64,000 bases of DNA from Escherichia coli (GTDB lineage: Bacteria > Pseudomonadota > Gammaproteobacteria > Enterobacterales > Enterobacteriaceae). A model generated the notes under the pieces. That model had not been told where the DNA came from. It worked only from the letters and a program-made list of their open reading frames with translations, and did no database searches. Numbering within the stretch: position 1 is the stretch's first letter; every line of letters begins with the position of its first letter. Positions 32,700 through 35,069 of the stretch are shown here, in pieces. The DNA is taken from the NCBI RefSeq assembly GCF_003334405.1, contig NZ_QOWM01000002.1. One strand, given 5' to 3'. The translations under genes were made by a program, and so were the position numbers.

Positions 32700-33392
32700 C
32701 TAGTGATAACCACGCGCGGTCATAAAATCCGTAATCGCTTTTTCTGCATCAACCAACACCTGTTCCAGTGGCTGATTGGCATCGATATCAACCAGTTGTG
32801 CACCACCAAAGGTTAACTGTGGCGTTATGGCAATCTTCCTCGCCAGCGATTCCCGTTTATGGTCGGGTTTACGTGCACAGGCAACTTCAAGGTCAACATT
32901 GAGTTTGATGACCAGATCAGGCTTATGGCTCGCCATCCAGTGAAACGCTTTACGTTCCTGGCTTGCCAGCCATGAGACAAAACGACCACCTTCAACGTTA
33001 GGTGGGAACACCGTACCATCGTAAGCGCCAGGAATTTGGTCCTGAGGATAACGGTCGGTTAGAACAATTAACCCGCGACGACGACAGGCAAGCATATGAC
33101 GAAAGCGCAGTAAGCGACGGGCGACAAACGCTGTAATTACCAGCGCCGGAACTGGTCCAGGCAATTTTTTTGCTGTTTTCACCTGATTTCGTTCAATTGT
33201 TTTATGTAAGGATTTTCCCATCAACGGTAATTTTGTCACTGCACGACCGACATTTCCGGCCTGTTTTCCTAAATGAACTCTTTCGGCAGCACCATATTTT
33301 TCGACAACGGTAATAAGATGTTCACACACCGTTGACTTGCCTGAACCATCGCTACCAATAACGGCAATTAATGGAGGTGTTATTGACTGCAT
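32700..33392 (-). CDS. yghT: P-loop ATP-binding (nucleotide/lipid kinase-like) protein YghT
   Basis: Walker A motif [10 protein letters not shown]. Shares the TDRYPQ, ARKPDH and ITPQLTF motifs with YghS and YghR. Confidence 0.85.
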
Positions 33393-33565
33393 GAATATAT
33401 CCTTTAATTTAAATATCCATTAAAAATATTTATTTGGTTAATATGTTTTTATGAAAGCGTAATTCAGGTCAATGTCACAATTAACCATTGTCACAATAAG
33501 GTTGAACGGATATTCTGAGCACGGACCACGTAATATTCAATACATTATTTACTGCCGGGTTTTTC

Positions 33566-34279
33566 GTGAATCAACGTAATATGTCAATAATTAATTCCAC
33601 GCCAGTGCGTGTTATTGCCATTGTAGGATGTGATGGTTCAGGTAAATCGACCCTCACGGCAAGCCTGGTAAATGAACTGGCAGCAAGAATGCCAACAGAA
33701 CACATTTATCTCGGGCAATCGTCCGGGCGAATTGGCGAATGGATTTCACAGCTCCCTGTTATTGGCGCACCTTTTGGGCGTTATCTGCGAAGTAAAGCGG
33801 CACATGTGCACGAAAAGCCCTCAACACCGCCTGGCAATATTACTGCACTGGTTATCTATCTGCTTTCCTGCTGGCGGGCGTACAAGTTTCGCAAAATGTT
33901 GTGTAAAAGCCAGCAAGGCTTTCTGCTCATCACCGACCGCTACCCGCAGGTTGAAGTGCCGGGGTTTCGCTTTGATGGCCCGCAATTGGCAAAAACCACG
34001 GGCGGTAACGGTTGGATAAAAATGTTAAGGCAGCGCGAGCTGAAGCTGTACCAATGGATGGCATCTTATTTGCCCGTATTGTTGATTCGTCTTGGCATTG
34101 ATGAACAAACCGCGTTTGCGCGTAAACCTGACCACCAACTGGCAGCGTTACAGGAAAAAATCGCCGTTACGCCGCAACTGACATTCAATGGCGCAAAGAT
34201 CCTTGAACTGGATGGGCGACACCCCGCCGATGAAATTCTGCAAGCGTCACTACGCGCAATTCACGCCGCGCTTTCCTGA
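33566..34279 (+). CDS. yghS: P-loop ATP-binding protein YghS (paralogue of YghR/YghT)
   Basis: Walker A motif VGCDGSGKST plus the paralogue motifs TDRYPQ and ARKPDH. Confidence 0.85.
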   Translation: MNQRNMSIINSTPVRVIAIVGCDGSGKSTLTASLVNELAARMPTEHIYLGQSSGRIGEWISQLPVIGAPFGRYLRSKAAHVHEKPSTPPGNITALVIYLLSCWRAYKFRKMLCKSQQGFLLITDRYPQVEVPGFRFDGPQLAKTTGGNGWIKMLRQRELKLYQWMASYLPVLLIRLGIDEQTAFARKPDHQLAALQEKIAVTPQLTFNGAKILELDGRHPADEILQASLRAIHAALS

Positions 34280-34310
34280 TCACCAAAATGGATAGGGGAT
34301 GATTTAACGA

Positions 34311-35069
34311 ATGGATGCACTACAAACTCAAACTGTTAATAGTACAACCGCGCCGCAGCCCAACTACATTCCGGGGCTGATTGCGGTGGTCGGGTGTGAT
34401 GGCACCGGTAAATCCACACTGACCACCGACCTGGTGAAATCGCTGCAACAACACTGGCAAACCGAGCGGCGCTATCTGGGGCTGCTCTCCGGCGAAGACG
34501 GCGACAAAATCAAACGATTGCCGTTGGTTGGCGTCTGGCTGGAACGGCGACTGGCGGCCAAATCCTCGAAAACCCAAAGCATGAAAACCAAATCTCCGGC
34601 GCTATGGGCGGCGGTGATTATGTACTGCTTCTCGCTGCGAAGAATGGCGAATCTACGCAAGGTTCAGCGACTGGCGCAAAGTGGCGTTCTGGTGGTCAGC
34701 GATCGCTTCCCGCAGGCTGAAATTTCGGGCTTTTATTATGATGGACCGGGGATTGGCGTCGAACGTGCGACCGGGAAAATCAGCATGTTTCTGGCGCAGC
34801 GCGAACGGCGTTTATACCAACAAATGGCGCAATATCGCCCGGAATTAATTATTCGCCTGGGCATTGATATTGAGACTGCCATCTCCCGCAAGCCTGACCA
34901 TGACTATGCCGAGCTGCAGGACAAAATCGGTGTCATGTCGAAGATTGGCTATAACGGCACAAAAATTCTTGAGATTGATTCCAGAGCGCCCTACAGCGAA
35001 GTGCTGGAACAGGCACAGAAGGCGGTTTCTCTGGTTGCCATCGTTTCTGACCGCCGAAGTTTAACTTAA
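34311..35069 (+). CDS. yghR: P-loop ATP-binding protein YghR (paralogue of YghS/YghT)
   Basis: Walker A motif VGCDGTGKST plus the paralogue motifs SDRFPQ and SRKPDH. Confidence 0.85.
   Translation: MDALQTQTVNSTTAPQPNYIPGLIAVVGCDGTGKSTLTTDLVKSLQQHWQTERRYLGLLSGEDGDKIKRLPLVGVWLERRLAAKSSKTQSMKTKSPALWAAVIMYCFSLRRMANLRKVQRLAQSGVLVVSDRFPQAEISGFYYDGPGIGVERATGKISMFLAQRERRLYQQMAQYRPELIIRLGIDIETAISRKPDHDYAELQDKIGVMSKIGYNGTKILEIDSRAPYSEVLEQAQKAVSLVAIVSDRRSLT

Follow-up and report, generated by a model that had tools for sequence, protein, structure and literature searches.

Three paralogous P-loop proteins of Escherichia coli, YghT, YghS and YghR, are encoded next to a ceramide gene cluster, and their family, their conservation and the company they keep suggest that they are the head-group kinases of the sphingolipid made by this cluster. 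We give this reading a probability of roughly 0.55. The genes lie in a 64,000-nucleotide stretch of contig NZ_QOWM01000002.1, which is called the window here. Most likely, as judged from sequence comparison, the three proteins are non-redundant ATP-dependent phosphotransferases that would form, together with a CHAD-fold protein (the product of orf274) and the flippase YghQ, the head-group cassette of a proteobacterial sphingolipid pathway. An initial annotation of the window had already suggested lipid or head-group kinases, and the comparative evidence presented here (fold, motifs, linkage, fusions and accessory genes) supports this suggestion; we infer from it that the proteins are active kinases with a lipid-linked substrate, that they form phosphoanhydrides and that they work as a complex.

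Three paralogues of the thymidylate kinase superfamily

The open reading frames (ORFs) of the three P-loop kinase paralogues are found exactly where the initial annotation had placed them. yghT (32700-33392, minus strand) encodes 230 residues, yghS (33566-34279, plus strand, GTG start) 237 residues and yghR (34311-35069, plus strand) 252 residues; the names are those of RefSeq. The start of yghS is ambiguous: RefSeq uses the GTG at 33566 (237 residues), an in-frame ATG at 33581 would give 232 residues, and the N termini of the orthologues vary. The three proteins can be aligned from end to end in a three-sequence alignment, and pairwise BLASTP gave 36% identity between YghT and YghS (E 2e-53), 44% between YghS and YghR (E 1e-63) and 34% between YghT and YghR (E 6e-48). 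At this level of sequence similarity they are certainly paralogues, as had been proposed.

The motif blocks thought to be common to all three proteins proved to be exact for YghT and YghS, but not for YghR. Across the trio the Walker A motif reads G[SC]DG[ST]GKST, with GCDGTGKST in YghR. TDRYPQ and ARKPDH of YghT and YghS are SDRFPQ and SRKPDH in YghR, and the ITPQLTF/VTPQLTF block is common to YghT and YghS only, YghR having VMSKIGY. Walker A is retained in 203 of 204 full-length homologues, and DR[YFW]PQ as well as the LID motif A.RKPDH in nearly all members of the T, S and R orthologue groups; the variant ERYPQ occurs in a few alphaproteobacterial R orthologues only. Since the catalytic motifs are intact in all three orthologue groups, no member of the trio looks like an inactive subunit. 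The isoelectric points are high (9.85 for YghT, 9.80 for YghS and 9.62 for YghR; orthologue medians 9.7-9.95).

The best Foldseek matches of an AlphaFold2 model of the kinase-trio fold (predicted local distance difference test score, pLDDT, 91.8) were solved thymidylate kinases (TMPKs), and a family profile built from 46 sequences aligned with solved TMPKs collinearly and over the whole length (E 5e-11). The alignment of the trio family to PfTMPK was also collinear. Similarity to solved members of the dTMPK superfamily was thus seen over the whole domain by profile and by structure, and with P-loop, DRX motif and LID in collinear order, YghT, YghS and YghR are, by these predictions, true members of this superfamily. 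The earlier description as "kinase-like" has gained substance from the TMPK fold and the intact Walker A, DRX and LID motifs. The solved matches included kinases that phosphorylate hydroxyl groups, such as deoxynucleoside kinase, shikimate kinase, gluconate kinase and chloramphenicol kinase. PPK2 (PF03976) was not the best Pfam or structural match for the trio, and YghT, YghS and YghR had no Pfam match to DAGK_cat. Homology to the ceramide kinase CpgB of Caulobacter was rejected, CpgB being of the DAGK/LCB5 type with a GGDG motif and no P-loop, and a role in anti-phage defence was rejected as well, a PADLOC scan having given matches at the level of Walker A only.

RefSeq annotates YghT and YghS as "dTMP kinase", a name that is almost certainly wrong. 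The dTMP kinase model TIGR00041 gave 25.8, 24.3 and 32.3 bits for the trio and its curated cut-off of 83.25 was not reached; Pfam Thymidylate_kin (PF02223) matched over the P-loop stretch only (independent E-value 0.013). Identity to solved TMPKs is 15-22%, there is an insertion of about 40-70 residues in YghT, YghS and YghR, and the stretch that leads from the P-loop helix to the DRX strand is elongated. In the hidden Markov model alignment, LFSANRW of TMPK lies opposite lslrrv, so that the arginine is kept and the phenylalanine is replaced by leucine, and the segment that follows DRY in the trio, PQxE.PG..DGP, is unlike the dTMP-binding loop of TMPK. The trio differs from dTMPK (Tmk; PF02223/TIGR00041) by scores below the cut-offs, by its very basic character, by the fixed set of three paralogues and by its lipid-cluster context.

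Conservation and gene neighbourhood

A profile search of 1.84 billion representative proteins yielded 2153 relatives, 140 of them at E ≤1e-30. In a scan of one genome per species 315 loci were confirmed, 80 of which were analysed by tblastn with the window proteins and by ORF clustering; neighbours were also counted in the 56 loci of at least 18 kb (long loci), with spt counted within 10 kb. The arrangement T(-)|S(+)R(+) with all three paralogues is present in 62 of 81 loci (the 80 plus the CFSAN061772 reference locus, L001). Two paralogues were seen in 14 of the 81, often at contig ends, and four paralogues in 4; the T orthologue group alone comprises 65 genes across the 80 loci. The trio spans Gamma-, Beta- and Alphaproteobacteria (Enterobacterales, Carnimonas, Rhodanobacter/Luteibacter, Nitrotoga, Gallionellaceae, Rhodocyclaceae, Methylotenera, sphingomonads and Acetobacter) and some metagenome-assembled genomes (MAGs) of Myxococcota and Planctomycetota. 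Across classes, orthologues share 50-58% identity and paralogues 34-44%. Because orthologues are closer to each other than paralogues, the triplication must be ancient and each copy has been maintained.

The most frequent neighbour of the trio is a YghQ-like flippase (57/80 loci, 48/56 long loci), and the orf274 family ranks third (51/80 and 42/56). The gene for serine palmitoyltransferase, spt, lies within 10 kb in 42 of the 56 long loci. Both lptF2 and lptG2 are present in 29 of the 56, some cassettes being without lptF2G2. Only 3 of the 56 had neither flippase nor orf274 family nor spt. From genus to genus the modules change places but stay linked: Serratia has yghO | aasR epi acpR spt | T | S R Q orf274 ytfJ lptF2 lptG2, Rhodanobacter T | S R aasR epi acpR spt Q orf274, and Rahnella and Pantoea lptF2 lptG2 | T | S R | yghO and further genes. 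The trio belongs to a five-gene cassette of three kinases, a CHAD-fold protein and a MOP flippase that is conserved from Enterobacterales to sphingomonads inside sphingolipid loci. The initial annotation had described the trio as flanking a lipid and export cluster, and this holds beyond E. coli with the flippase in 48 and spt/ceramide genes in 42 of the 56 long loci. It had also named wide occurrence of the three genes in genomes lacking the yghQ-yghO cluster, under independent expression control, as a finding that would speak against a lipid function; the opposite was found, since linkage to cluster genes is kept in the loci compared.

A YtfJ-family gene is part of 34 loci, all of the enterobacterial type. 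Beta- and gammaproteobacterial loci have a small secreted protein (cluster 16, about 170 residues) in place of YtfJ.

Fusions and distant homologues

YghS and YghR are fused in one ORF in both Nitrotoga loci (in Nitrotoga sp. M5, L047, 9866-11356, 496 residues) and in a gammaproteobacterial MAG (L055, 8144-9829), and tandem S-R and T-(S/R) fusions were found in the homologues P0121 (an S-R fusion), P0122 and P0124; the fused ORFs have about 430-560 residues. These fusions suggest a physical association of the paralogues, which may work as a complex.

Among distant homologues of the kinases, P0264 and P0220 are fused to MOP flippases and P0248 to a GT4 glycosyltransferase. Another distant homologue belongs to locus L082, a Wzx/Wzy polysaccharide cluster that also has sulfotransferase genes; its gene and the end of a Wzx gene overlap there. 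The flippase fusions and the adjacency to Wzx in such distant relatives indicate that the coupling of this kinase family to MOP flippases is general. A distant subfamily of about 500 residues carries an unannotated N-terminal domain of about 260 residues with the motif HWKSN.HL..AL.G.TD.D.LV (residues 1-260 of P0163, P0169, P0172 and P0185; residues ~560-810 of P0264), for which no Pfam match was found; some of these proteins bear a MOP flippase as well, and the homologue of the Wzx/Wzy cluster is another of them. The 249-residue product of the gene that follows the distant fusion protein in L082 shares a match of only 28 residues with the family of that protein.

orf274, a divergent CHAD-fold protein

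orf274 (36464-37288, plus strand) encodes a protein of 274 residues that is annotated as "hypothetical protein". The E. coli protein gave nothing significant in NCBIfam or Pfam, and a sequence search of the PDB returned nothing at E up to 10. Its relationship to CHAD proteins became visible only by structure comparison and by the annotation of family members. In a profile search with the orf274 family, the best 120 matches listed (E ~1e-113 or better) were all unnamed or "hypothetical", and 7 of them carry a precomputed assignment to PF05235; a member of the family alignment matched PF05235 at E 0.089, whereas the E. coli protein did not match. An alignment of 22 sequences of the family has the invariant residues R88, K92, H93, R95, H105, H193, R196 and H237. 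From the predicted structure, for which, as for the kinases, the confidence is high, the orf274 product is a divergent CHAD-fold protein with conserved histidines and basic residues. CHAD domains have been described as modules that bind inorganic polyphosphate (bioRxiv 10.1101/567040). Unlike known CHAD proteins (PF05235; for instance Ricinus CHAD, 6qv5, Streptomyces PptA, 6rn5, and the C-terminal domain of E. coli YgiF), it escapes detection by Pfam and NCBIfam, and its gene adjoins flippase and lipid genes, not those for CYTH, PPX or PPK.

Accessory genes for lipid phosphates

Several genes that come and go between the loci encode enzymes of lipid phosphates or acyl chains. A small membrane kinase of the DgkA type (Pfam DAGK_prokar, 5e-31) is present in 14 loci of Serratia, Pantoea, Rosenbergiella, Carnimonas and others, where it adjoins yghO inside the cluster (for example L012 2194-2553, L021 11512-11871 and L031 11517-11876); the E. 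coli cluster has no such gene. PAP2 phosphatases with signal peptides, of the LpxE/LpxF/SepP/PgpB type, occur in 17 loci, and an OlsC/LpxO-like acyl 2-hydroxylase (2e-66) also in 17. In 11 loci (L044, L046, L052, L060, L063, L065, L067, L070, L071, L076 and L077) there is a protein of the ICMT family that matched LmtA best (4e-30), the O-methyltransferase of the lipid A 1-phosphate. As far as gene content can tell, these accessory genes would act on lipid phosphates or acyl chains and point to a lipid-linked phosphate.

The LmtA-like gene (11 loci) and the CHAD-like gene (51 loci) were not found together in any of the 80 loci. Their place in non-enteric loci is one and the same, between T and S-R, the order being K- LmtA- K+ K+ in one case and K- CHAD+ K+ K+ in the other (K, kinase gene; the sign gives the strand). 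This exchange fits a lipid phosphate that would either be bound by the CHAD protein or be capped by methylation.

The locus in E. coli

Positions 32000-44000 of the window are 100% identical to E. coli CFSAN061772 (Megablast), where RefSeq uses the names yghT, yghS and yghR. The locus is E. coli B-like and holds the known sphingolipid (ceramide) cluster. In E. coli B this corresponds to ECD_02850-02854, of which Spt, AcpR and AasR have been characterised biochemically and epi and yghO (as aca) have been assigned to dihydroceramide synthesis (PMC9386255).

As the initial annotation had stated, yghT is divergent from yghS, the two genes lying on opposite strands, and yghS and yghR run co-directionally into yghQ and the LptFG-like genes. 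The AT-rich spacer between yghT and yghS (33393-33565, 173 bp, GC content ~0.41) presumably holds the promoters of yghT and of the yghS operon. yghQ (35115-36464, plus strand) is full length and encodes a MOP/Wzx-type flippase of 449 residues with a weak NCBIfam match to MOP flippases. orf274 follows, and after it come, all on the plus strand, a gene for a YtfJ-family periplasmic protein (37297-37860; TIGR01626, 212 bits, above the cut-off), lptF2 (37891-38961; an LptF paralogue of the sphingolipid-locus type; TIGR04407, 318 bits) and lptG2 (38958-40037 with the RefSeq start; an LptG paralogue; TIGR04408, 308 bits). The genes from yghS to lptG2 (yghS-yghR-yghQ-orf274-ytfJ-lptF2-lptG2) are co-directional with gaps of 31, 45, -1, 8, 30 and -4 bp and are followed by a strong hairpin, an arrangement that is consistent with one operon. 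This GC-rich hairpin with a 16-bp stem (40035-40069) lies between the convergent genes lptG2 and spt and is likely a bidirectional terminator. The homologues of LptF2 and LptG2 in Caulobacter are required for sphingolipid transport and bind and use LptB (bioRxiv 10.64898/2026.04.12.717747).

The ceramide genes on the minus strand are spt (40072-41244; serine palmitoyltransferase; NF047599, 599 bits, cut-off 500), acpR (41244-41492; specialised acyl carrier protein; ORF list and RefSeq), epi/cerR (41524-42438; NAD-dependent reductase of the ceramide pathway; RefSeq and NCBIfam) and aasR (42435-44123, RefSeq coordinates; acyl-AcpR synthetase, a fatty acyl-AMP ligase; NF006624, 878 bits), the last three being assigned after PMC9386255. 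yghO (44539-45675, plus strand, in an ORF of 44455-45675) encodes an N-acyltransferase, the candidate for Aca/bCerS, annotated with 378 residues as in K-12, and is followed by glcC. No RNA element of Rfam was matched in 32000-46000. The ytfJ gene of the cluster is a second copy of an uncharacterised family and is found in these clusters in Enterobacterales only. pitB (31152-32651), encoding a low-affinity phosphate transporter, converges on yghT with a shared hairpin at 32661-32689; this adjacency is seen only in close relatives (Escherichia, Pseudocitrobacter, Hafnia and Citrobacter loci) and may be coincidental.

With the 12-kb query (window 32000-44000), a partial match was obtained in 5111 of 5426 complete E. 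coli genomes, and at least 80% of the query is held by 4063 of the 5426 (~75%). In K-12 (ER3413, L085 7680-8845) an IS5 element replaces the region that corresponds to ~36183-44500 of the window and has taken the 3' part of yghQ as well as orf274, ytfJ, lptF2, lptG2, spt, acpR, epi and aasR. The genes left in K-12, namely yghT, yghS, yghR and yghO together with a truncated yghQ, are what remains there of the sphingolipid locus. K-12 is a degenerate case and no evidence that the trio is independent of the cluster.

Over-expression of SlyA in K-12 raised yghS 3.1-fold, in a table that gives yghS the marks K and O (PMC5797941), and a peak of FlhDC in a SELEX (systematic evolution of ligands by exponential enrichment) experiment maps to the yghS/yghT spacer (PMC9962212). 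In this spacer we found one weak sigma-70-like match (33488-33516), and such matches were no more numerous than in shuffled sequence. The marks K and O in the SlyA table presumably stand for H-NS-binding data sets. The response of yghS to SlyA suggests that the native cluster may be silenced in E. coli or under laboratory conditions; its product may then appear only under particular conditions.

Discussion

The y-genes themselves and the ceramide part of the locus were known before. The cassette of trio, CHAD-fold protein and flippase and its link to sphingolipids were not met with in the literature searched: yghT, yghS and yghR appeared there only as entries in screens or tables, and yghT, yghS, yghR, yghQ and orf274 were not discussed in a sphingolipid context. 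We regard the kinases as derived from dTMPK and exapted to a new, probably lipid-linked phosphate acceptor.

The pathway we propose would start with Spt, AcpR, AasR, CerR and YghO, which would produce (dihydro)ceramide on the cytoplasmic side of the inner membrane. The first phosphate could be placed on ceramide by a DgkA-type kinase, encoded in the cluster in 14 loci and represented by the housekeeping DgkA in E. coli, or by one of the paralogues. E. coli DgkA phosphorylates ceramide in vitro, which makes the DgkA paralogue of the cluster the natural candidate for a ceramide kinase and would leave the later phosphorylations to YghT, YghS and YghR. These would add further phosphoryl groups, either in series or as an S-R(-T) hetero-oligomer. 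The likeliest chemistry would be that of nucleoside monophosphate (NMP) kinases, with a phosphate as acceptor; the head group would thereby become a di- or oligophosphate, to be bound by the basic CHAD-fold protein. YghQ would then flip the anionic lipid, and LptF2 and LptG2 together with LptB would extract it towards the outer membrane. Known substrates of MOP flippases carry a pyrophosphate. Even if the three proteins are head-group kinases, a lipid-linked di- or oligophosphate as their product is a tentative assignment.

It is tempting to speculate one step further, that the cassette makes a lipid-anchored oligo- or polyphosphate in which ceramide-1-phosphate is extended by phosphoanhydride bonds in a PPK3- or NMP-kinase-like reaction. 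While the chain grows, the CHAD protein would keep hold of it, YghQ would flip the pyrophosphate-containing lipid as Wzx and MurJ do with substrates linked to undecaprenyl pyrophosphate, LptB-F2G2 would deliver it to the surface, and PAP2 phosphatases or the LmtA-like methyltransferase would trim or cap it. We regard this as an unlikely, if attractive, outcome.

Several points weigh against a function of the trio as head-group kinases. The TMPK-type fold also serves hydroxyl kinases, and phosphate-acceptor chemistry is thus not implied by the fold. orf274 is below every Pfam threshold, and its assignment to CHAD comes from a predicted structure and from family members. No lipid product of the E. 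coli cluster is reported in the literature searched. yghT, yghS and yghR are intact in K-12 although IS5 has removed orf274 to aasR, and K-12 knock-outs had no marked phenotype in one silkworm screen. Finally, 14 of the 56 long loci have no ceramide gene within 10 kb; several of these are from sphingomonads or Acetobacter, in which the genes for sphingolipids are known to lie apart from each other.

If the fold is taken as that of a hydroxyl kinase, each paralogue would phosphorylate another hydroxyl group of (dihydro)ceramide or of a small head-group precursor, for example the C1-OH, the C3-OH or a 2'-OH introduced by the LpxO/OlsC-like enzyme, and the lipid would be mono-, bis- or tris-phosphorylated with no phosphoanhydride. 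We consider this improbable. The best matches in sequence and structure are phosphate-acceptor TMPKs, and the DRX arginine is kept. A lipid kinase of the DgkA type is already present in 14 clusters, and the CHAD-fold partner and the MOP flippase suit a group rich in (pyro)phosphate better. Moreover, the hydroxylase is absent from most loci, including that of E. coli, which keep all three kinases.

The closest functional analogy to the head-group cassette, though not the family to which the trio itself belongs, appears to be PPK3. PPK3 of Sulfolobus acidocaldarius is a heteromeric polyphosphate kinase made of two "thymidylate kinase" paralogues (Saci_2019/Saci_2020) that are encoded together with PPX, SixA and a CHAD protein; its DRX arginine clamps the phosphates of donor and acceptor and is missing in the regulatory subunit (rPPK3), and operon-encoded archaeal "dTMPK" paralogues of this kind had no dTMPK activity (PMC12995831). 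The E. coli trio consists of three adjacent paralogues, all with the DRX arginine, in contrast to the two of PPK3, one of which lacks it. In the window cluster a CHAD-fold gene lies two genes downstream of yghR; PPX and SixA were not found there. The trio lies among genes for a MOP flippase, LptF2G2 and ceramide synthesis, in a host that has PPK1, and the proposed acceptor is lipid-linked.

A soluble PPK3-like enzyme is nevertheless a conceivable explanation. YghT, YghS and YghR would then form a hetero-oligomeric polyphosphate kinase or polyphosphate-dependent nucleotide kinase, with CHAD-bound polyphosphate and an indirect link to sphingolipids, e.g. by the supply of phosphate or energy or by polyphosphate as phosphoryl donor. 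The evidence makes this quite unlikely. The family profile matched ST1543 (cPPK3, PDB 2plr/5h70) at E 9.8e-5 and over the P-loop only, whereas canonical TMPKs were matched over the full length at 5e-11, and no paralogue without the DRX arginine was seen as in rPPK3. Neither the window cluster nor the recurrent families contained recognisable PPX, SixA or Pst genes, and the linkage to pitB is limited to close relatives. Of all partners it is a membrane flippase that is most tightly linked, and the accessory genes encode lipid-phosphate enzymes. E. coli, in addition, already has PPK1 and PPX.

The tight coupling to the flippase, including fusions, and the lack of an ATPase gene for LptF2G2 in the cluster could also be explained by non-kinase ATPases or regulators that energise or gate the step catalysed by YghQ or LptF2G2; alternatively, the genes could be decaying remnants in E. 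coli. Both possibilities are remote. With DRX and LID the fold is that of a kinase and not of an ABC or AAA+ protein, MOP flippases are not known to be ATP-driven, the LptF2G2 of Caulobacter uses the housekeeping LptB, and cassettes without lptF2G2 exist. Decay is at odds with the strong sequence conservation across classes. Least probable of all are genuine dTMP or NMP kinases that supply nucleotides, e.g. for nucleotide-activated head groups: the weak matches to TIGR00041 and PF02223 and the TMPK fold would agree with them, but not the 24-32 bits against a cut-off of 83.25, the 15-22% identity and the insertion of ~40-70 residues, nor three conserved paralogues locked to a lipid cluster, which would be unexpected for housekeeping metabolism, the lack of a nucleotidyltransferase in the E. 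coli-type cluster that could use the nucleotides, or the archaeal operon-encoded "dTMPK" paralogues devoid of dTMPK activity.

Head-group kinases encoded beside LptF2/LptG2 and a putative flippase would resemble the arrangement of the phosphosphingolipid locus of Caulobacter, whose product is an anionic outer-membrane phosphosphingolipid. The head-group set of Caulobacter comprises CpgB, CpgC, CpgA, CpgD, CC_1153 and CC_1158, with enzyme types that include a DAGK-type ceramide kinase (CpgB), a CDP-diacylglycerol-synthase-like and a CDP-alcohol-transferase-like enzyme, two nucleotidyltransferases and a phosphoesterase. None of these is a dTMPK-like P-loop or CHAD protein, and none is found in the E. 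coli-type cluster. With no cytidylyltransferase- or CDP-alcohol-transferase-like enzyme encoded in the latter, its head group should be another one.

Although ~75% of the complete E. coli genomes carry at least 80% of the 12-kb query, the literature searched describes no sphingolipid of this species. With the trio there is now a testable candidate for the head-group chemistry that is still missing from the sphingolipid pathway of the E. coli type; this chemistry would differ from the ceramide-phosphoglycerate route of Caulobacter. The proposal also builds on a recent report in which dTMPK paralogues were found to act on chains of phosphate in partnership with CHAD proteins. An anionic lipid of the outer membrane, should this be the product, could alter envelope charge, sensitivity to polymyxin and detergents and recognition by the host, as shown for Caulobacter. 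If the product were a lipid-anchored polyphosphate, it would represent a new class of membrane lipids and a surface-directed polyphosphate chemistry that is encoded in most strains of E. coli.

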